Part shown: positions 12,630 to 37,539 of the stretch, in pieces | Layout: every line of letters begins with the position of its first letter | Numbering within the stretch: position 1 is the stretch's first letter | Assembly (NCBI RefSeq): GCF_963921235.1 | Contig: NC_086097.1 | Span: 75,642,001-75,706,000 of the forward strand | Direction of reading: 5' to 3' | Origin: Mobula hypostoma | Taxonomy: Eukaryota | Length of the DNA: 64,000 nt | Notes under the pieces: model-generated | What the model saw: the letters and a program-made list of their open reading frames with translations, nothing else | What the model was told of the DNA's origin: nothing | Database searches by the model: none | Translations under genes and position numbers: made by a program

Positions 12630-15600
12630 TTATCCAATCAAAAGCTGGGGGACTTGCATTACTGATTAGGGAGAACATCATCGCTGGACTTAGTGTAGAT
12701 ATCTAGTAGACCTCATCTAGTGAGGCCTTATGGGCAGAACTCAATAATAAGAGTGGTGCATTCACAACAATGTTGCTATACTATAGGTCTTCACAATAGC
12801 CATCAGGAGCTAGAGGAACAGGTATGCAGACAGTTCATGCAAAACAGTGAAAGAAACGAGGTTGTTATAGTGGATGATTTTAACTTTTCCTACATTGATT
12901 GGGACTTTTCTCATGCCAGAGTTAGAAGAGAAAGAGGTGCATCCAGGAAGGTTTCTTGAAACAACATGTCAGAATTTCAAATAGGGATGAGGCAGTACAA
13001 GACTATTCATTAAGGGATGTGCCTGGTCAATACTTCAGTGAGGGACAATTTTGAAAGCAGTGATCATAATTCTGTAAGTTTTAAGGTAGTTGTGGATAAT
13101 GATAAGACTGGTCCTCAGGTAAAAGTGCTAAACTGGATGAAGGCTATTTAAGGAGGAACTTGGGCAAGTTGATTGGGAGAGGCTGTTTGTGTACAAATCC
13201 ATATTTGACACATACAAGATTTTTAAAGACCAATGGATTGGAGTTCAAGATCAACAATTCCTGTGCGCATGAAACACAAGGATGGCAAGGCTTGTAAACA
13301 AGAGATATTGTCGGTTTAGTCAAAAAGGAAAAAAGAAGAATATGTAAGGTTCAGGAAGCTAAAATCAGACAAAGCCTTTGAAGAATAAAGGAGCTAGGGA
13401 AAAATAAACAAGTATTTAGGAGAGGCAAAAGAACCAATGAAATATTCTTGACAGAATTAAAACAATTCTCAAGGAATTTTATATGTATATTAGAAGCAAG
13501 GGAGTAGCTAAGGAAAGAACAGGTCTACTCAAGAACTGTGGACGGAATTTATGCGATAAACCAGAAGTGAACGAGGCCATAATTGAGCACTTTGCCTCAG
13601 TGTTTACCAAGAAAGACATGGATGATGGTGAAATTAGGGAGAGGTTTGTTGACATTCTAGGGTGTATTGATACCGAGAAGGAGTTATATGTATTGGAAAT
13701 ATTAAGATGGATAAGTTCCCAGAGCCCGAAGGAATTTATCCCAGAGTACAGAGGAAAGCAAGGGAGGATATCTTGAGCTGTGATACAGACTTTTGTATCC
13801 TCTTTAGCCAGAAGACTGAGAAATAGCTGTACTGATCCTTTGTTGAAGGGGAAAAAAACAGGAAATTATAAACTGGTGATCTTTATATCAGTGGAAAGAA
13901 ATAATTAGAGAAGATTCATAAGAACAGGACTTACATTTGGAAAAAAAACATGAAATTATAGGGAAAATCAGCATGGCTTTGTATGAAAGAGTTTGTGTCT
14001 CACAAATCCGACTGAATTTTTTGAGGGTATGGCAAAGATGATTGATGGACATAAGGCTTTTATTAAAGCATTTGACAAGATCCCTTTTGATAGGCTAGGC
14101 AAGAAGATTGTCACTTGAGACCTATGGTGAGTTGATAAGATGGACACAAAATTGGCTTGATCATAGAAGTGGAGGGGTGTTTCTCTGCCTGGAACTCTAT
14201 GATCAGTGGTGTTCTGCAAGGCACTCTGTTCAAATCAAGTCAGTCAAGTCACTTTTATTGTCATTTTGACCATAACTGCTGGTACAGTACACAGTAAAAA
14301 CAAGACAATGTTTTTCAGGACCATGGTGCTACGTGAACAATACAAAAACTACACTGAACTATGTAAAAAAAACAACACAAAACTACACTAGACTACAGAC
14401 CTACCCAGGACTGCATAAAGTGCACAAAACAGTGCAGGCATTACAATAAATAATAAACAAGACAATAGGCACAGTAGAGGGCAGTAGGTTGGTGTCAGTC
14501 CAGGTTCTGGGTATTGAGGAGTCTGATGGCTTGGGGGAAGAAACTGTTACATAGTCTGGTTGTGAGAGCCAGACTGCTTTGGTGCCTTTTGCCAAATGGC
14601 AGGAGGGAGAAGAGTTTGTATGAGGGGTGCGTGGGGTCCTTCATAATGCTGTTTGCTTTACGGATGCAGTGTGTGGTGTAAATGTCTGTAATGGTGGGAA
14701 GAGAGACCGCCGATGATCCTCTCAGCTGACCTCACTATCCGCTGCAGGGTCTTGCGATCCGAGATGGTGCAATTTCCGAACCAGGCAGTGATGTAGCTGC
14801 TCAAGATGCTCTCAATACAACCTCTGTAGAATGTGGTGAGGATGGGGGGTGGGAGATGGACTTTTCTCAGCCTTCACAGAAAGTAGAAATGCTGCTGGGC
14901 TTTCTTTGCTATGGAGCTGGTGTTGAGGGACCAGGTGAGATTCTCCACCAGGTGACCACCAAGAAATTTGGTGCTCTTAACGATCTCTACGGAGGAGTCG
15001 TCGATGTTCAGCGGAGAGTGGTCCTTCCGTGTCCTCCTGAAGTCAACAACCATCTCTTTTGTTTTGTTCACATTCAGAGACAGGTTGTTGGCTCTGCACC
15101 AGTCCATTAGCTGCTGCACCTCCTCTCTGTATGCTGACTCATCGTTTTTGCTGATGAGACCCACCACAGTCGTGTCATCAGTTCTTTGTTATACTGTATA
15201 TATAAATAATCTGGATGAAAATGTTTGATTTATAGGTTTGCAGATGACATACAAATTAGTGGATTTGTGGAAAGTGATGAGTGTTTTCAAGTGGTACAGC
15301 AGGTTACAGATCATTTGAAAATTTAAATGGAGAAATGGCAAGAAGTACTTAATCTAGACAAGTGTGAATATTTTGGGAGGTTAAGTGCAAACGGAAAATA
15401 TACAGTGAATGGTAGGATCCTTAGCAGCGGGATCTTGAGGTGCAAGTCTATAGTTCACTGAAAGTGACAACACAAGTGGATATGATGGTAAAAAGATATA
15501 CTGCTTGTTTGCCTTCATCAGGTAGCATACTTGTATAAAGGTTGGAAAAACAGGTTGCAGCTGTATAAAACTTTGGTTAGGCCACATCTGGAGTATGTGG

Positions 15601-18571: not shown

Positions 18572-18740
18572 AACCATATAACCATTACAGCACGGAAACA
18601 GGCCATCTTGGCCCTTCTAGTCCATGCCGAACTCTTACTCTCACCTAGTCCCACCGACCTGCACTCAGCCCATAACCCTCCATTCCTTTCCTGTCTATAT
18701 AGCTATCCAAGTTAACTTTAAATGACAACATCGAACCTGC
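18572..18740 (-). mobile_element. CR1 3'-end fragment
   Basis: (TATGGT)-type tail and GAAGGGCC...GGCCTGTTTCCGTGCTGTA stem in antisense. Confidence 0.7.
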
Positions 18741-19407
18741 AATAAGTTCCCAATATGCTGTGCTTTAATTCCCCACTGAACGCAAGTGGGAAATATTCAG
18801 CTTTTCTTTCCTTTACTTTTTTTGGTAAAATTTTGAATTAATTGGTATATTATTGGATAGTTATTATTTGCTTTCACCCTCTGATTATTATTTCAGAGGT
18901 TTGAAAAGAATACAACTGAACAACTTATTCCTGAACAATTTTATCTCTTTTGCAGAATAACATTGGAAGAAAAGTGGCAAAATACTGCCTACGTGCGTGC
19001 ATCAGGAAAAAGTTAAAAGAACAAAAGAATATTTGTGATTTTCCGGTTCACTATGGAAACAGATGCAAGTGCTAAAAAATAGAACACTTTTGCACTCTCG
19101 TTTCCCTCTAAGGTAGAAGATGAGCTAATTATAAAATATAGAATATCCTTTCATTCCAGATCTACTCCTAAAGATCTAGTGTCACCCTTCTTCAGCTTAC
19201 ATTTTCACCCTGGCTAAGATTCATGATTTTGCATCAACTGGTCCAGCCTAAAACTGATTCTGTACCGTGAATGTGTAGCGATAGTAATCTGGATTAAAAT
19301 CACTTAACACCTTGCATCCATACACTACCAGGGAGAAAACATTGTACGCAATTAAACCACATTAAATTTATGTAACATTTACAAGGAAAGGTACAGTAAT
19401 TTATCTA

Positions 19408-19621
19408 CAAACCCCATTTCCAGAAAAGTTGGGATATTTTCCAAAATGTAATAAAAACAAAAATCTGTGATATGTTAAGTCACGTAAACCTTTATTTAAC
19501 TGACAAAAGTACAAAGAAAAGATTTTCAATAGTTTTACTGACCAACTTAATTGTATTTTGTAAATATACACAAGTTTAGAATTTGATGGCTGCAACACAC
19601 TCAACAAAAGTTGGGACAGAG
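19408..19621 (+). repeat. Left terminal inverted repeat of Tc1
   Basis: About 12 mismatches (hand count) against the reverse complement of 20798-21011; AAAAGTTGGGA at outer and inner ends. Confidence 0.95.
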
Positions 19622-19724
19622 TTAAAATAAGATTGAAAAGTGCACAGAATATTCAAGTAACACCGGTTTAGAAGACTCCACATTAAGCGGGCTAATTGAT
19701 AGCAGGTGAGGTATCATGACTGGG

Positions 19725-19731
19725 TATAAAA
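19725..19731 (+). promoter_or_regulatory. Putative TATA box of transposase
   Basis: TATAAAA 44 nt upstream of ATG 19769. Confidence 0.45.
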
Positions 19732-19768
19732 GTAGCGTCCATCAAAGGCTCAGTCTTTGCAAGCAAGG

Positions 19769-20791
19769 ATGGGTCGTGGCTCAAGCCTTTATGCCAAAAT
19801 TCGTGAGAGAATTGTTAGTCAGTTCAAAAGGAACATTTCTCAACGCAAGATTGCAGAGAATTTAGGTCTTTCAACATCTACAGTATGTAATATTGTGAAA
19901 AGATTCAGAGAATTCAGAGACATCTCAGTGCGTAAAGGGCAAGGTCGGAAACCACTTTTGAATGCACGTAATCTTCGAGTCCTCAGGCGGCACTGCCTAA
20001 GAAACCGTCATGCTACCGTGACAATTATAGCCACCTGGGCTCGGGAGTACTTCGGAAAACCATTGTCACTCAATACAGTCCGTCGCTGCATCCAGAAATG
20101 CAATTTGAAACTATATTACGCAAGGAGGAAGCCATACATCAACTCTATGCAGAAACGCCGGCGAGTTCTCTGGGCCCGAGCTCATCTCAGATGGACCGAA
20201 AGACTGTGGAATCGTGTGCTGTGGTCAGATGAGTCCACATTTCAGCTAGTTTTCGGAAAAAACGGGCGTCGAGTTCTCCGTGCCAAAGATGAAAATGACC
20301 ATCCAGATTGTTATCAGCGAAAGGTGCAAAGGCCAGCATCTGTGATGGTATGGGGGTGCATCAGTGCCCACGGCATGGGTGAGTTGCATGTATGTGAAGG
20401 TACCATTGACTCTGAGGCGTATATTAGGATTTTAGAGAGACATATGTTGCCATCAAGGCGACGTCTCTTCCCCGGGCATCCATGCTTATTTCAGCAGGAC
20501 AATGCCAGACCACATTCTGCACGGGCTATAACAGCGTGGCTTTGTAGACACAGAGCGCGTGTGCTTGACTGGCCTGCTGCCAGTCCAGAACTATCTCCTA
20601 TTGAAAATGTATGGCGCATCATGAAGAGGAGAATCAGACAACGGAGACCACGGACTGTTGAGCAGCTGAAGTCTTATATCAAGCAAGAATGGACAAAATT
20701 TCCAATTTCAAATCTACTACAATTAATATCCTCAGTTCCAAAACGATTAAAAAGTGTTATTAAAAGGAAAGGTGATGTAACACAATGGTAA
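19769..20791 (+). CDS. Tc1-family transposase, 340 aa from first ATG
   Basis: Uninterrupted ORF with N-terminal HTH region, GRKP hook, WSDES, VMVWGC and FQQDNARPH...SPELSPIEN; 34 residues between second D and E. Confidence 0.95.
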   Translation: MGRGSSLYAKIRERIVSQFKRNISQRKIAENLGLSTSTVCNIVKRFREFRDISVRKGQGRKPLLNARNLRVLRRHCLRNRHATVTIIATWAREYFGKPLSLNTVRRCIQKCNLKLYYARRKPYINSMQKRRRVLWARAHLRWTERLWNRVLWSDESTFQLVFGKNGRRVLRAKDENDHPDCYQRKVQRPASVMVWGCISAHGMGELHVCEGTIDSEAYIRILERHMLPSRRRLFPGHPCLFQQDNARPHSARAITAWLCRHRARVLDWPAASPELSPIENVWRIMKRRIRQRRPRTVEQLKSYIKQEWTKFPISNLLQLISSVPKRLKSVIKRKGDVTQW

Positions 20792-20797
20792 ACATGC

Positions 20798-21011
20798 CTC
20801 TGTCCCAACTTTTGTTGAGTGTGTTGCAGCCATCAAATTCTAAATTTGTGTATGTTTACAAAATACGATTAAGTTGGTCAGTAAAACTATAGAAAAGATT
20901 TTCTTTGCTCTTTTGTCAGTTAAATAAAGGTTCACGTGAATTAACATATCACAGATTTTTGTTTTTATTGCATTTTTGAAAATATCCCAACTTTTCTGGA
21001 AATGGGGTTTG
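20798..21011 (-). repeat. Right terminal inverted repeat of Tc1
   Basis: Reverse complement of 19408-19621, followed by TA. Confidence 0.95.
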
Positions 21012-21134
21012 TACAATACCAACTAGTTCTACACAAATACATTCGGCATGCATTTTCATCTTTTAGTTTATTATTTAACTAAATGTATGCCATTCACATA
21101 AAATGCAGTTTTGAAACAGTAATTATGATGGCAT

Positions 21135-21360
21135 CATTTATTTATTTATTGAGATACAGTGTGAAGGAGGCCCTTCTAGCCCTTCATGTCACACCGCCCA
21201 GCAGTCTCCTGATTTATTCCTAGCCTAATCATGGGATAATTTATAATAACCAATTAACTTACCAACCGGAACATCTTTGACTGTGGGAGGAAACCGGAAA
21301 ATCCAAAGGAAACTCACACAGTCACTGGGAGAATATATCAGCTCTTTACAAACAGTGATG
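21135..21360 (-). mobile_element. Decayed V-SINE
   Basis: Antisense V-domain (CTTTGACTGTGGGAGGAAACCGG...GGGAGAA) and (AATA)n tail. Confidence 0.65.
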
Positions 21361-21369
21361 AGAACTCAG

Positions 21370-24300
21370 GAGCATAAGTTAGGAACAGATGTTCTCAGGG
21401 GAAATGTGCAGCAGAAAATGTGGAGGCTGCTTAGAGAACACTTACATGGGTTTCTGGATAGGTTGGTCCAATTGACGCAGGGAAAGGATGGTAAGGTGGA
21501 GGAAACCTGGTTGACAAGGGAGGTGGAATATTAAATCAAGAGGAAGCATAATTGAGGTTTAAGAAGCAAGGATCAGAGAAAGCCTTGAGAGTTATAAGCC
21601 AGCCAGTAAGTAGCTTATGAAGGGGCTTATAAGGGCTAGAAGTGAACATGAGGAAGTCTTGGCAGGTAGGATTAAGGAAATCCTCTAGGCGTTCTACAAA
21701 TACGTGAAGATCAGGTGGATGACTAGAGTGAGGGTATGACTGCTAAGAGATAAATGGTGAAACATGTGTGGAGACAGAGAAAATAGGGGACATCTTTAAT
21801 GAATACTTTGCTTCAGACTTGACCGAGGGAGGGACTTTGACGTATGTGAGTTCAGCATAAAACAAGCTAATGTGCTGGAGCCCACTGAAGTTTCAAAAGA
21901 GGCAATGTTGGTGCTTTTAAAAAATCTTAGGATAGATAAGTCCTAGGACCATATGGGACATCCCCTAGATTCCTACTGGAATTAATGAAGAGACTGCTGG
22001 GTCACTGTTGATGATTCTTTCTTCCCACAGAAATAATACCAGAGGATTGGAGGATAGCAAATCTTGTTCCATTGTTCAAGAAAAGTAAAAAGGATAATCT
22101 TGGGAATTATAGGCTCATCCATAAAGGCAACTTGATTGGACCTTCGAAAAATAACAGATGCAATTATGCTGAAATATTGTAGGCTCCCTAATAGCCACTG
22201 AGAAATAAAGGAACTTTCCATAATCTGTCTACAGTATTGATTGGATCTTTCTTAATACAAGAAGCTTAGATGGGGCAGTATTTCTTCAATGCATCCAAGA
22301 GGGTTCTTGAAACAGTATGTGGAGAGTCCAATCAGTGGAGAGAACATACTGGACCTAGTTTTGAGAAATGAGCCAGGCCAGGTGATAGATCTGGTGGTGG
22401 GTGAACTTTTTGGGAATAGGGACCACAGCTCATTATGGTTTAAGATATGAGTATATGAACAAGGATACTATTGGATCTTTTGGAAAGGTACAAATTTAGA
22501 GGAGAGAAAGTACAACAGGATAAGACAGGAGCTAAAGGATATTGATTGGGAGTAGCTGCTGCCGGATAAGTCCATGTCTGACATGTGTGAGTTGGTTAAA
22601 GATCAGCTGATCAAGGTGCAGGATTGGCATGCTTCAGTAAGAAGTAAAGAGAAGAAAGGTAAGGTAAGCGAACCTTGGATGACCTGAGAGGTCCTTAATT
22701 TAGTCATAAATAAGTACAATATATGCAAGGTTCAGTAAGTTAAAATTATACTGGGCTCTTAATGGAATATAAAGATAGCAGGAAAGTGCTCAAACAGGTG
22801 ATTAGGAAGGCCAGAAAGGGCCAGGAAATGTCATCATGAGCAGGATCAAAGAGATACCCAAAGAATTTTAAAATTATATTAAGAAAATGAGGATAACTAA
22901 GGAGAGGGTAGGTCCACTCAAGGATAAAAGATGAAATTTGAGCTTGGAGTCAGAGCAAGTGTTTGTGATGGTGTTTACCAAGGGGAAGGATTTGGAGGAT
23001 AGCAAAAGCAGAGTGAGACATCCTAATGTGATGGGAAATTTTGTGATTAAAGAGGAGATAGTGCTGGGTCTTTTGAAAATCAATAAGGTGGATAAGTCCC
23101 AGGTCCTGCTGGCAGCTGTGTACATACATCTATTGATGCTTCTGGACACATCTTCAGTGATGTTCCTGGAATCATCGGGTGTTTCGGGTCTTTCAACATC
23201 ATACAACCTCCTCCAGGTGACCCAGCCGGGGCTGATCAGACCCCATCCTCTAGATGGCTAGCTACTTATGACTCCATGGCTCCTCTCTTTTGAGCCACAG
23301 CCATCTTGAGGCCCTCTCTGCCGCATCGGTGGTACTGCGGATGGCTCTCCTCTTCCTCTCTCCCTCAATGCCCAAAATGCTGAAGGCTCTAACTAAAGAA
23401 CGGGCTATGAATCCCCTACAACCAACCTCCACTGGGAGACACCTCGCTCTCCATCCAGCCTGCTGACAGTTGCTGACCAGTCCTGCGTACTTGGAGAGCT
23501 TCCTTTCAAAGGCCTCCTCCAAGCTATCTTCCCATGGGACTGTCAGCTCCAGCAGCACCACTTGCTTAGTAGACTCAGACACTAGGACAATGTCTGGTCG
23601 CAGGGTGGTGGCTGGCATATATTCTTTCAAAATATTGTAAGAAGCAAGTGTTAAGGTTGCTGGGCTTGGACAAGGATCATGTGTCCTGGCTATCCACAGG
23701 TGAGTTCCCCAAGAGTAGCAAAGATAGTGCCTTGGTTCAAGAAGGGAAATAGGAAAAAAATCTGTTAAGTGTAGGCCAGTGAGCCTTATGTCTGCAGTTG
23801 GGAGGCTATTGGAGAGTATACTGAGAGATAGGATTTTGTATATTTGGAAAGCCACAGTCTGCTTAGGGACAGTTAGCATGGCTTTGTGCAGTGCAGATCA
23901 TATTTTACAAACTACACTGAGTTTTTTGAGAAGGTGATTAGACGATTGATGCTAATGTAGTGGATGTTATGTACATGGACTTCAACAAGCCATTTGATAA
24001 GATCCCTCATGGTAGATTGTTCAGAAGATAAAGATGCATGGGATTCAGAGTGAATTGCAAGTTTGGATTCAGAACTGACTTGTCCATAGAAGACAGAGGG
24101 TAGGGTGGAAAGCTGTTATTCTGATTGGAGATCTGTGACCAGTTGTATTCTGCAATGATCAATGCTGGAACATCTATTGTTGGTGACATTTATCAATAAT
24201 TTGGATTAAAATGTTGATGGGTTGTGATTATCATGTCTACAGATGGTTGAGTTGCGAACAGTGTAAAGGACTATCGAAGAATATAATGGTATATAGATCT

Positions 24301-31114: not shown

Positions 31115-32150
31115 TGAGTACATTATAGGAGAACCATATCTAAATTATCAATGTTAATTAATTTTATACATAGTTTATGCTTATGCTTCACCACTATTGA
31201 GCACATTAGAGGTCTTTGACCCATCACAAAATTAATTGTCATGCTATGCAAAATTTTACAATATATATTATATATAACAGATAGAGACACAATTACATTT
31301 TCAGTAAGTTCTTTGTGAAATATCTTAATAATTTAAATAGCATGCAATCAATAACTTTCCAATGCTGTCATTTTCACTAATGCATTTAGCAGGGCTGCTA
31401 CATAGTCATGATTTCTTGCTTTTAACATATATTTAAGTTTTTACTACAGCCTGCTCTTCAGAGCTGTTCTGGACACCATGGGAATGAAAAAGAGGGAAAC
31501 GGGAATTCAGCAAACACAGAATCTTTAAATCTGTAAGTCATTGGTAAAATGAATCATAAAATGTGCTAAATATGCTACGGGATAACGTCTTACATCACAA
31601 ATATTTGTCGTGGTTAAATGAAGATTTCACAGTTTTCTAATTTATTACATTCATTCCGAATTCAAAACAATAGTCTCCCTCAACCTTATCTTACTTTTCA
31701 ACAATATTCACACTTTCCGATCATTACCCACTTTCATCTTTCAGTCTTTCAACCACAGCAGCATCAGATATCATAAGTCTCATACTTTCAACATGGATCG
31801 CTAATAGATTAAAGATTAAATCGAACCAAAATGAAATGAATTTGAAATAATCACATTTCCAGCTGACAGTGATGCAACTTTTCCAAATGCAAAGGTTTTA
31901 ATTTAACTTAAAACTCTTATTAGCTATAGGGACACGGAATAAATAGGGTGCGCTAGTCAAAAGGGGAAGAACAAAATTCAAGAGGCATGTTTATCATGGT
32001 AAATGCATGAGAAATAATATATGCATATATTCTAATGTGGAAGAAACTTAGGTAATAGATTGAAAATGTGATGTACAATGGTCTGATACTGATTGATTGC
32101 TAAATGCAAAACAACAAATTCACTTTATGTAAGTCAGTGATAATAAATTT

Positions 32151-32277
32151 AACCGTGCTGGAGGAACTCAGCAGGTCAGGCAGCATCAATGGAAAAGAGT
32201 AAGCCTGGCCTGCTGAGTTCCTCCAGCGTTTTGTGTGTGTTGCTTGGATTTCCAGCATTTGCAGATTTTCTCATCTT
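32151..32277. mobile_element. Miniature fold-back Penelope-end element
   Basis: 25-bp inverted arms GCTGGAGGAACTCAGCAGG(T/C)CAGGC; 13-bp TSD TGATAATAAATTT (32138-32150, 32278-32290). Confidence 0.8.
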
Positions 32278-33789
32278 TGATAATAAATTTGATTCTGATT
32301 TTCTCTCTGTGGTGATCAATGTTTTGCTGCTCTATGAGTTTCCGGGTATTCGATCAGAATAGGTAATTATCTGCCATAAAAAATACATCACTTTTTAATG
32401 TTACCAAACCTTGTTGCGTTTATTTATCGTTGCTTTAGAACTAATTATTTACTCATTTATTTCCTAGCTAAGAGGCCAATTAAGTTCTTCGTTATTGTGA
32501 GGAGATGCAAGTGAGCCGTGATGTTTGACATTCGACTCAGTTTCTGTGATTTAAAAAAAACCTACCTTAGACAAGGAACTAATCGTACAGGGAACCGAAA
32601 GGGAGAACCCACATCCTTTTTTTAAAAAAAAGTTTATCTAGTTTGAAATGCAGTTATTGTCTTTCCACGTTAAAAATGTATTTCCGCATTAGCTTCAGAT
32701 TGTTTTAATTTCAGGACCAAATTGGTGAATTAAACCAGAAGAAACTACAAATTCAAAATTTACTTCAAACTTCTAGGAAAAGATTAATTGGGGATAGAAA
32801 TAACCAGCAAACTCTAGCCCTTGATCCTTCTGCATCTTTTTATAATGGCTTTCAGACAATATGCTTTCAAAGTGGCCCTTATAAATAAAATCATCATAGT
32901 TGTTAAACATCAAATTAACTGATAATGGAAGGGCACCCGTATTTTTTCACCGAATGGGGTGGCTTGCAGCGCATCGTCCGGCTAGCGATGCCTTTTCCAG
33001 CACCCAGGCTTTCCCTTCCCAGCTCACTAACGTATAGCCAGCTCGCCGAGCCAGAGGCTCGTACAAAAACGCTGAAGGAAATCAGCAGATTACACAGCAT
33101 CCATGCAAGAGAATAAACAGTCGACTTTCCTGGTGAAGTGCCTCGGTCGACTGTTTATTTCCTGCCATAGACGCGATGCGGCTCGCAGGGATCCTCCAGC
33201 GATTCCCGCGCGCAGCCCAAGCTTCCCAGCATCTGCAGAATCTCTTGTGCCTTTAAATTACTGCGCGCTACCACTGGGAAAGAGGGAAGGACTACTTCCA
33301 CGCGGCTCACATTGACAGAGAGAAAACTAACCTTTCAGCAGCACGCGTCGGGCTTTAATTACTGACCAGTTCTAGCGGAACTGAGTGAAGAGAGAGCGAA
33401 GCAGAGAGAGGGGCGAAAGGTAGGGAGGAAGGTGGATCGGTCTGCAGGACTTGTTGTCGGGGCGGAGGAGGGATACGGGTTTCCCAGGGTGCGTGCGACG
33501 TCCATTGCTTCCGCCCGGACGCCAGGCAGCGTCCCCCTCCCTCCCTCCCACAGAGACGGCCCAGCGCCCCTCCTCCTCTTCTCGCCGACTGAGAGCGGGA
33601 TGGAGCTCCAGAGTGGAGCGGTGCCACTGGACAGGCCGGGGTCAGGCCACTGAAGACAGGCCACGAGTGGTGCGCTTCTCCCTCTCCCTCTCCCCCCCTC
33701 CCCCTCACTTTCCCACCCGGTGTGATGTGGATACCAGCGGCCGAGGCGCTGCCCGGCCCGGGACAGGCAGCGGGAAGGGCGGCTGCAAC

Positions 33790-33858
33790 ATGAAGAAGTG
33801 GTGTGGCGTGCCGGGGATGCTGCTGAGGATTAACGTGGCGATGATCGCAAGGCGCTGA
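33790..33858 (+). other. Putative uORF MKKWCGVPGMLLRINVAMIARR
   Basis: GCAACATGA Kozak context; TGA ends 3 nt before ATG 33862, same frame. Confidence 0.4.
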
Positions 33859-33861
33859 AAG

Positions 33862-33887
33862 ATGAGCGAGGAGGCAAACCAGACCGA
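33862..33887 (+). CDS. Probable coding part of exon 1 of an unidentified gene (MSEEANQT, phase-2 intron)
   Basis: AAGATGA start (A at -3) within the CpG island, followed by donor GA|GTAAGG; no convincing exon 2 found in the window. Confidence 0.5.
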
Positions 33888-34274
33888 GTAAGGGGACTAC
33901 ATCAAGGCATAAATAAACAAATGGTAGCCGCCGGCGCTCGCACCCGGGGGCTCGCTTCCCAGCACTGTCGTCCGACTACCATCATGATTCCGGCGTAATC
34001 TGGGGACGCAACCGCAGCCCAACCCCGGCATGGACCACTTGGGTCCCTACCATTACTCCCTCTGCCCCCCTCCCAGACCCCTAACCCAACATCCACCCCT
34101 GACCCACCATCCCTCCACTGCCTCCCGATCAACCCCACACCCCCGATTGATCCGTCATGCCCCCGACCCGCCAGTCACCTTCGCCCACCCCCGGATACGA
34201 CAGCAACCTTTCTTTCTCTCCGTAAGCCACCAATTGCCCTCTTACCAACACTGACCCAACAATTACCCGCTTAC

Positions 34275-35230
34275 CGGCCCCCGATCCGACAGTTACCCTC
34301 TCCACAGCCCTCCGACCCACCAGTCATCCTCTCCCCAGCCCTCCGACCAGTCATCCTCTCCCCAGCCCTCCGACCAGTCATCCTCTCCCCAGCCCTCCGA
34401 CCCACCAGTCACCCTCTTCCCAGTCCTCCGACCCACCAGTCACCCTCTTCCCAGTCCTCCGACCCACCAGTCACCCTCTCCCCAGCCCCGATCCGACAGT
34501 CACCCTCTACCCAGCCTTCCGGCCTACCAATTGCACTCCTCCCACCCCACCCCCCCATCCGACTCCTCACCCATCCCCCCAATCCGACTCCTCACCCATC
34601 CCCCCGATCCGACTCCTCAGTCACCCCCCCGATCCGACGTCACCCACACCCCCGATCCGACTCCTCACCCACACCCCCGATCCGACTCCTCACCCACACC
34701 CCCGATCCGACTCCTCACCCACACCCCCCGATCCGACTCCTCACCCACGCTCCCGATCCGACTCCTCACCCACGCTCCCGATCCGACTCCTCACCCACCC
34801 CCCCGATCCGACTCCTCACCCACACCCCCGATCCGACTCACCGTCCCCCCCGATCCGACTCACCCTCCCCCCGTCCCCCCCGATCCGACTCACCCTCCCC
34901 CCGTCCCCCCCGATCCGACTCACCCTCCCCCCGTCCCCCCCCGATCCGACTCACCCTCCCCCCGTCCCCCCCCCGATCCGACTCACCCTCCCCCGTCCCT
35001 CCCCATCCGACTCACCCTCCCCGTCCCCCAGATCCGACTCACCCTCCCCGCCCCCCCATCTGACTCACCCTCCCCCATCCCCCCAATCCGACTCACCCTC
35101 CCCCATCCCCCAATCCGACTCACCCTCCCTGTCCCCCATCCGACTCTCACCCTCTCCATGCCCCCTCCATCCGACTCGCCCTCCCCATCACCCCGATCCG
35201 ACTCGCCCTTCCCCTCATCCGCACTTCACC
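34275..35230. repeat. C-rich compound minisatellite (~23-29 bp units built on TCCGAC...TCACCC)
   Basis: Direct tandem repeats such as CCCCCGATCCGACTCCTCACCCACAC. Confidence 0.92.
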
Positions 35231-37539
35231 CTCTCCCTCATCCGCACTTCACCCTCACCCCCATCCACACTTTACCCTCTCCCCCCTCGATCTGACATTC
35301 ACCCTCTCCCTGCACCCTCCCCCATCCGACTCATTCTCCCCATATCCCCATCTGCCATTCACCTCCCCACCCCCCCATTCAAGATTCACCTCTGACCATC
35401 CCATCCAACATTCACCCTCTCTGCACAACCCCACCCCCCAGTCTGACATTCACCCCCTCCCCACACTCCTCCTGAATCGACATTCAACCTCTCCCCACGG
35501 CCAACCCGCCTTACACCCTCATCCCTCATTCCCTACTGACCTGAAATTTACCCCTAAGTAATCCTGCTCCTGCCAGAAATGCCTTTCCGTGCTCTCACCC
35601 AGACACACTGTCCTCAAGATCTGTTGTCCTTTCTACCCACCCACCTCAACCCCTCTGTCCACTCTCCTGCCACCTATCCCTTTGTCTCCATCTCCTCCTC
35701 TCACCCCTCCTGACCCTTAACCCCACTTACGCCGTCCCAACCTCTAACTAACCCAAGCCCTGCCACTTCCTTTAAAGCTTACGTGTCAACCATCCCAGTA
35801 TCTCCTTCCGTTCCACTGTTGCCCCTACACCCTTCTCCTTCCCCTTCACCAGCTCCCACCACTTTTCTCATTCTACCTTTTTTGTTGAATACTATGGATG
35901 TGATGGTGACTGTACAGTGGTCAAATGCTGTGAATGTTGAATGCAAAGGTTACTCTGTTTCATCTGTACCAATGGAATGGGACAAGATGGAAGTCCATAC
36001 TATGTAGAGGGATAAGGAGTTGCATGTCATTGGCACATTGGGCGGATGGAGGACTATATTTCACACGCACGGATAGGGTGGCAGATGTGTGTATATATTT
36101 TACCACAGAACAAGGAGAGGTGGTTGTGTACAATCGTAATACCCAGGTTGATGGGGGAGTTGGTTTAGAAATGGAAGTGTTTGCGAAAATACGAATTGTA
36201 TTTTGTTTGGTATTTAAGAGGCCTGAGTTATTTTGTGCTTAGTGTTGGAGGTGATTGGGGAAGGCTGGTGTGAGCAAAACCTGTCCTGAGTGGGTTGGGG
36301 GCCAGGTTTGAAAATGAGGGGGCATACATCCAGCCTCCGCCCTGTATTTGGAAATGGGCTTCTTTGCTTGGCAGGGGTTGGGAGGAGGGGAAAGGATAGA
36401 TTTAATTTAAGTAGTGCCAGGCTTTGCAGTTGCTGCAGATGTGGAGTTGGGTGCAGTTGGAAACAGAATTCTGCCTCCTACATATTTGAAACAGTCTTCA
36501 TTTTTGTTCTCTTCTAGTTGCCCTCGGGTGGTTTGATAGGCTAGATTTCCGCTATGCAATGACCCTCCAACGGACTCAGCCATCCTGCTTTTTTGTCAAT
36601 CATTCTTTTCTGCATTGCTTTTTCATTCATAAAAGAAGCTCTGTAATATGTCATTTCCCTTCTCCTTTCAAGCCTGTGGTAAAGGGGCCGTTTTAGGCGA
36701 TACATAAATTACTCACTGGCCTTGTCACATCCGTTATTGGTAGCAATGGTAACATTTCGAAATCTTGGTTGTGGAGAAGCGTGTGAAAGGAGAACAGTTT
36801 GCCGGATGCACTCATGTGGTGAGAAATATTAGCATGGGAGGTGCAGCAGTCATGTGACTACCCCATTCATAAAATACCTGTTGTCCATTCACAACCCTGC
36901 ATTCACTTGCATTATACAGTAAGATCAGTGGCTCAGGAAAAAAGCCGACTCGGGATTTTTTTTGCCAGACAGTATACTTTGCAACATTTTAACAATAGCC
37001 AAGAAGTTGTATCTGTAACTTTAGCTTTGTGAATAGCTAAAGAGAGAGCAATATTATACTCTGAACATGAGTTTCCAAATGTAAGGTTAATTAACTTGCA
37101 ATATATGAAACTTGTAGAACTGCCATTATGTATTATATTACCAGTTTCCTACAGGTTTTGTTACATTGGGAATTTGCTGCAAGGTTTATCCCCCCCCAAA
37201 AACAAGCTTTTGTTGGCAAAATGTCTATCTTCCCTGATATTGTTTCCTTTCTTAAGGGCTTTCATTCTTTCTAGAAAAGTTGGCAAATTCCTGGCAGTAA
37301 CTGTAATCATTGTTCAAGATACAGTATTTGTAATTCGAAGGTGGCACTGGTGAAACTCAGTGACGTTCTGTGAACAGTTTACAAAACTTCTAAATATACT
37401 TCTTCTGAAGTACTCTCACTGCAATCTGCATCCTGTAATTTCCCTTTAAGTAATGTTCATTTGAACCATTGTTAAAGAAAAACAGTTATTTCACAATCTT
37501 CTTAAGGACTTGATGGACTTCTCTCAGGAATACGGGTAT

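Follow-up and report, generated by a model that had tools for sequence, protein, structure and literature searches.

Several described DD34E/Tc1 systems bear comparison with the element considered here. Sleeping Beauty (SB100X, PDB 5cr4) encodes a 340-aa transposase, targets TA and carries IR/DR ends. In the catalytic region it is reported to be 68% identical to SB-like transposases and 58-61% identical to ZB (PMC9777934). ZB, an active native Tc1 element of zebrafish, is also of the DD34E type, with ends of about 200 bp and a transposase of about 340 aa; 19 intact copies are reported to be more than 99% identical, with ends 100% identical (PMC7913693). A further DD34E/Tc1 clade is found in fish and amphibians, its named members coming from carp, pike, grouper and clownfish, together with a Polypterus "TCB1 transposase" and Xenopus tropicalis entries. 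More generally, DNA transposons are described as drifting neutrally in genomes and persisting mainly by transfer (PMC7070016), and the Tc1/mariner content reported for rays is 2.30% vs 0.14% for sharks (PMC12361510).

The locus examined here lies in a 64,000-nucleotide stretch of the Mobula hypostoma genome (NC_086097.1, 75,642,001 to 75,706,000), hereafter the window. An original prediction made from the letters alone had proposed a structurally complete and possibly recent Tc1 transposon at this place. The element is most probably (about 85%) a full-length, ageing copy from a DD34E/Tc1 family abundant in rays; the copy has drifted and its frame is open by chance.

Architecture of the element

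The element proper occupies 19408-21011 (1,604 bp), the span 19406-21013 counting both TA dinucleotides. The features are collected in Table 1. As is usual for Tc1/mariner elements, a TA duplication flanks terminal inverted repeats and, as in the IR/DR subgroup, the arms are long and harbor two direct repeats each, one outer and one inner, with a spacing of 182 bp in both arms (repeat families D6 and D7). With these ends and an open 340-aa DD34E frame all present, structural completeness was correctly anticipated, the TA duplication included. The repeat ends had been called perfect, which holds for the outer 34 and the inner 47 bases, where the arms show no mismatch, but not for the whole repeat, in which 12 of 214 positions differ (94.4% identity).

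Table 1. Features of the Tc1 element (window positions)
Feature	Position	Strand	Remark
Left TA target-site duplication	19406..19407	.	
Left terminal inverted repeat, 214 bp	19408..19621	+	IR/DR type; 12 mismatches vs right arm
Outer direct repeat, left arm	19419..19434	+	Putative transposase binding site; family D6; role by analogy with Sleeping Beauty (PMC8151067)
Inner direct repeat, left arm	19601..19616	+	Core also in fish-type relative L001
TATAAA, putative TATA box	19725..19730	+	44 bases 5' of start codon
Transposase ORF, 340 aa	19769..20791	+	Two helix-turn-helix subdomains, GRKP motif (aa 59-62), DDE domain
Catalytic D154	20228..20230	+	
Catalytic D244	20498..20500	+	
E274, private change making SPEL	20588..20590	+	Relatives: D 184/186, E 0/186
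Catalytic E279 (DD34E)	20603..20605	+	
Right terminal inverted repeat, 214 bp	20798..21011	-	
Right-arm direct repeats	20803-20818 and 20985-21000		
AATAAA, putative polyadenylation signal	20923-20928	+	In right arm
Right TA target-site duplication	21012..21013	.	

Of the 16 frames in the window that start with ATG and reach at least 120 aa, the transposase frame is the longest. Second comes, at 260 aa, a fragment of a CR1 reverse transcriptase, and the claim that the window holds only one full-length uninterrupted transposon frame is borne out. The best named matches for a CR1 frame in the window come from Hypanus sabinus, Callorhinchus and Leucoraja, which, together with the closest named relative of the transposase (below), points to a cartilaginous host, most likely a ray. 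Likewise, the frame has kept CpGs in a CpG-depleted background, as had been noted: the observed/expected ratio is 0.76 vs 0.25 for the background with the CpG island left out, and 40 CpGs are seen where 13 are expected (p ~1e-9). No other Tc1 copy or remnant was found in the 64 kb.

Pfam HTH_23, HTH_Tnp_Tc3_2 and DDE_3 all match above cut-off, giving within some 340 aa the bipartite paired-like DNA-binding domain and DDE domain of Tc1/mariner transposases. The predicted triad D154, D244 and E279 is in place, its last two members separated by 34 residues as in DD34E/Tc1 enzymes, and SPEL stands instead of SPDL at residues 272-275, again as stated. In an AlphaFold model of low confidence (pLDDT 66.6), weak around the active site, the protein would fold like Sleeping Beauty and Mos1.

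Regarding the surroundings, no host-gene domain was recognized near the element in 150 frames scanned with Pfam (148 taken from the 253 non-repeat frames of at least 48 aa, including two that rank below the top 150; the others are a longer frame and another listed one). A CpG island in 32000-36000, with observed/expected values up to 1.3, is followed by C-rich tandem arrays with units of 25-31 bp at 34285-35285; the island is probably a promoter, and Pfam recognized no coding exon by it. The frame at 33358-33975, considered as a lipid phosphatase exon, was dropped, having neither a Pfam match nor a start codon. Two short Pfam matches to ALKBH8_N at 14661-15188 (minus strand) lie among LINE remnants; they probably stem from a LINE and not from an exon of the host. 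A 211-aa frame without Pfam match lies within a CR1 remnant at 23262-23897 (minus strand); it may resemble the end of a different non-LTR element, the part with a restriction-type endonuclease.

Comparison with known transposases

The closest named relative of the window transposase is XP_072136370.1 from Mobula birostris, a member of the same family: over 214 aligned residues its identity is 90% with the family centre and 87% with the window protein. It is broken after about aa 204, and its 14 own changes within aa 1-204 include none in common with the window. In this entry (P0344), the ~204 aa of decayed transposase are fused with some 500 aa of sequence that is unrelated and rich in lysine; the fusion is either an annotation artefact or an exonised DNA-binding domain.

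The fish and amphibian clade likewise has 340-aa transposases, 58-73% identical to that of the window over their full length, and the fish-type DNA relative L001 shares the core of the inner direct repeat; the ray family forms a separate branch inside this clade. With Sleeping Beauty, to which the original prediction had likened the element, IR/DR layout, size of the ends, TA target and protein length are alike, and D154, D244 and E279 align with D153, D244 and E279, the last two at equal positions. However, Sleeping Beauty is no close relative: identity in the catalytic region is about 38% (86 of ~224 columns, counted by hand), and the ends begin with CAAACCCC rather than CAG, which places the element outside the SB/SB-like clade as it has been delimited (catalytic domain about 68% or more, CAG ends). 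Two motifs at the start of the ORF were not found in the portion of the PMC9777934 supplement that was covered.

The element may also resemble Minos of Drosophila hydei (CAP09075) and Xeminos of Xenopus tropicalis, presumably in its N- and C-terminal motifs, its IR/DR ends and its C-rich termini. Xeminos is listed as one of seven Xenopus Tc1 lineages (PMC3144230), and one X. tropicalis protein is 60% identical to the window transposase. In the literature searched the ray family is not described, though repeat databases such as Repbase and Dfam may already list it. Rfam gave no match for the element.

Copy number, divergence and age

Seventeen public sequencing runs under ten organism labels hold the element's words at a share of 0.42-0.61, and three metatranscriptome datasets at 0.08-0.17. 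Four of 23 listed runs, including X1, X2 and X21, were compared over 18740-21200. In X2 the flanks match those of the window without a single difference over 689 and 173 letters, so that X2 is in effect the host species and its 43 difference places must lie inside the element. They put the window copy at 2.68% (1.95-3.59) of the 1,604 bp from the family majority; at the 26 places listed inside the element, nearly all depth shows the other letter in every covering run. This figure agrees with two others. The arm mismatches equal 2.8% divergence per arm (5.6% between ends), and with 43 differences a word share of 0.43 is expected, where 12 of the 17 main holders show 0.42-0.47.

The family has thousands of copies. 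Depth over the element relative to the flanks is about 3,700-8,500x in X2 and 3,400-11,600x in X1, values from summed contig depth that are not true copy numbers and are read for the order of magnitude only. If the genome is taken to be 3-5 Gb, the raw reads of X21 translate into ~900-2,700 copies; their coverage is about half-fold, at which the zero depth in the flanks carries no information. One common divergence from the window copy, of about 5%, fits the read identities (a typical copy lying ~2.3% from the centre), while a two-part mixture permits 32-56% young copies; a subfamily sharing the listed changes of the window copy would make up at most a few percent of these reads. Copy number and divergence, the check attached to the original prediction, are thus available from public runs: thousands of copies, with the window copy about 2.7% from their majority.

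X1 is a second organism, its flanks differing from the window at 11 of 689 and 7 of 211 places (18/900, about 2%). In both X1 and X2, contigs enter the element from both flanks and stop at the same bases, 19428 and 20990. Because the X1 contigs run into the element at both junctions, the insertion is older than the split of the two organisms (about 1% per lineage), on junction contigs that carry just 21 and 22 element letters against a bridging rule of 31. The comparison covers 40 of 73 differences and 15 of 26 joints, so an empty-site joint may exist.

The family would be about 2.7 times as old as the X1/X2 split. DNA transposons may transpose again once they have mutated, and the 2.7% divergence therefore dates the family and not strictly this site. 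At yearly rates of 4e-9, the zebrafish rate used in PMC7913693, to 3e-10, it corresponds to ~6 to 90 million years, of which the older part is favored because sharks are reported to mutate slowly (PMC10587355). A pedigree rate of 7e-10 per generation from the same source was rejected, its direct use giving an implausibly old date. For orientation, a separation of ~20 million years is cited for two mobulid species (10.64898/2026.10.27.761883).

The runs also contain family members with internal deletions, whose joints lie at window 19645-20632. Three such deletions are common to X1 and X2; one of them removes about 357 bases (19649 to 20007/8), and the derivative that carries it stands at ~60x flank depth in X2.

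These data bear on whether the window copy is a recent insertion, autonomous and currently active, as the original prediction had suggested. The open frame, the intact triad, the identical terminal 34 bases of the arms, the TATA and poly(A)-like signals and the CpG retention would all suit such a copy, and three of the word-holding runs are guessed to be RNA. However, the second organism has the same junctions (21-22 element letters per contig) where a recent insertion would be absent from a sister species, the ends mismatch at 12/214, no X21 subfamily with the listed changes exceeds a few percent of reads, and at positions H40, D68, K188, T254 and D274 the window residue occurs in none of 184-189 relatives. 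Recently active ZB copies are more than 99% identical with identical ends, whereas the window copy is 97.3% identical to its majority and its ends are 94.4% identical to each other. Recency is therefore not supported: the copy is 2.7% from the majority, its ends differ by 5.6% and the insertion is common to a second species. A recent, active insertion is very unlikely. Diverged copies common to relatives, which the original prediction had named as the outcome that would speak against it, are largely what was found.

Private changes and the open frame

Twelve amino-acid changes are private to the window protein (aa 6, 8, 40, 68, 71, 188, 237, 254, 263, 274, 314 and 320). Three near-identical full-length proteins, which may represent majority paths of the assembly and not individual copies, are 1-2 residues apart from each other and 12-13 from the window protein. 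At aa 8, 40, 68, 188, 254, 263 and 274, the window residue has no occurrence among 189 more distant relatives. Judging from these comparisons, SPEL is a mutation private to the window copy and not a family trait.

The private changes do not avoid conserved sites, which again speaks against recent activity: six of the 12 fall in columns conserved in the clade, where unconstrained drift predicts 5.6. Among 167 conserved columns, judged against 13 lineage majorities, the window copy departs from 15, the family centre from 9 and other lineages from 2-13. In two of the changed codons, at 19784-19785 and 19886-19887, two adjacent bases differ; the latter change can be read as two steps via a CpG and would fit a long residence.

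Regarding function, the YSPDL motif positions the DNA for cleavage in Mos1, where mutants of Y, P and L, not of D, are named as hypoactive (PMC4344528), and the change of D to E at 274 is conservative. Residue 188 aligns with H187 of Sleeping Beauty, at which some substitutions are reported to be tolerated (PMC4820933). One conserved-site change, at aa 40, falls within helix three of the first DNA-binding subdomain. Because six changes, that at aa 40 included, strike conserved sites, the window transposase is probably impaired, and it is unlikely that the protein is still active. The ends of the element may still be movable by the enzyme of another copy.

A frame held open by host selection, i.e., domestication, has also to be weighed. 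The site looks fixed, being common to two organisms, and the frame is open. The 19 listed coding differences comprise 12 nonsynonymous and 7 synonymous changes, and the protein comparison adds two nonsynonymous ones. With 14 nonsynonymous against 7 (seen) to ~16 synonymous changes, depending on the differences beyond those listed, dN/dS ranges from ~0.9 to 0.3; the low end, reached if most other differences are synonymous, would depart from neutrality (p<0.01). On the other hand, the private changes strike conserved columns at the neutral rate, and both ends and the TA duplication are still present. Chance is also sufficient: after 21-30 substitutions, the probability of no stop is 0.17-0.37 and that of no frameshift 0.04-0.34 (assumed indel rates), i.e., about 1-13% jointly per such copy; among thousands of copies, tens to hundreds should then keep an open frame with no selection at all. 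Domestication is very unlikely, and the frame of the window copy is most likely open by chance.

For the ageing, drifted copy that we favor, a course of events can be proposed by analogy with Sleeping Beauty and Mos1. Insertion would proceed by cut-and-paste, the transposase binding the four direct repeats and pairing the ends, then excising the element and integrating it at TA. The family spread in one or few bursts to thousands of copies, before the host parted from at least one sister species. The window copy has since drifted by ~2.7%; its frame would have stayed open by chance, and its transposase has probably become impaired.

Origin of the family

In a tree of 36 sequences picked from the matches, the ray family is nested (support 99/98) with elements of carp, pike, grouper, clownfish, bichir and Xenopus, and within this clade the bichir and frog proteins are almost identical. 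The family itself is star-shaped, with branch lengths of 0 for the centre, 0.035 for the window and 0.067 for the Mobula copy and no private sites in common, which implies a single founder. Its sister consists of fragments 82-87% identical to the family centre (P0510, P0517 and P0609, from ENA contigs). This sister subfamily is the best lead to a possible transfer partner.

It is rather probable that the founder entered rays horizontally from a bony-fish-type donor, probably more than 10 million years ago. The nested position, the single founder and the sister subfamily all point this way, as do the excess of Tc1/mariner in rays over sharks (PMC12361510) and the reported persistence of DNA transposons mainly by transfer (PMC7070016). 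Against it, no donor was found: the best named full-length bony-fish relative is 71% identical and the best named fragments 75-77%, no near-identical element was found in a named non-cartilaginous host, and dS to the fish-type DNA relative L001 is ~1.3 (dN 0.23). Nor did viral contigs yield a relative among three pattern matches. Horizontal movement, as first proposed, is therefore plausible for a founder long ago, but nothing supports a recent transfer. Such an entry complements the reading of the window copy as an old one and does not compete with it.

Outside animals, plasmids gave one weak IS630 match only, and prokaryote genomes 10 loci on short contigs, best read as animal contamination. 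L001 itself, a fish-type Tc1, comes from a Flavobacterium assembly, where its contig measures 1.1 kb. Two Vibrio entries (P0155, P0156) group with grouper and clownfish transposases; in both cases contamination with host DNA is the most likely explanation.

A more far-reaching view is unlikely: that the family was transferred from a bony-fish lineage of which the sister subfamily is the trace, was one of the drivers of the ray-specific Tc1/mariner expansion, and keeps intact near-founder copies, probably Minos-like, that are still active somewhere in ray genomes. The read identities of X21 would allow a young fraction of copies. If true, this view would mean that vertebrates have a natural element, from a lineage other than that of Sleeping Beauty, which could serve in gene transfer.

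Implications

Recent activity cannot be read from an open frame, an intact triad and retained CpGs when the genome evolves slowly and the family counts thousands of copies. As to the suggested use in gene transfer, the window copy would be a poor choice; if the protein at the family centre were active, it would add one more tool to a well-stocked toolbox. For the biology of rays, the family offers datable orthologous insertions and a handle on the reported expansion of Tc1/mariner elements in skates and rays (PMC12361510).
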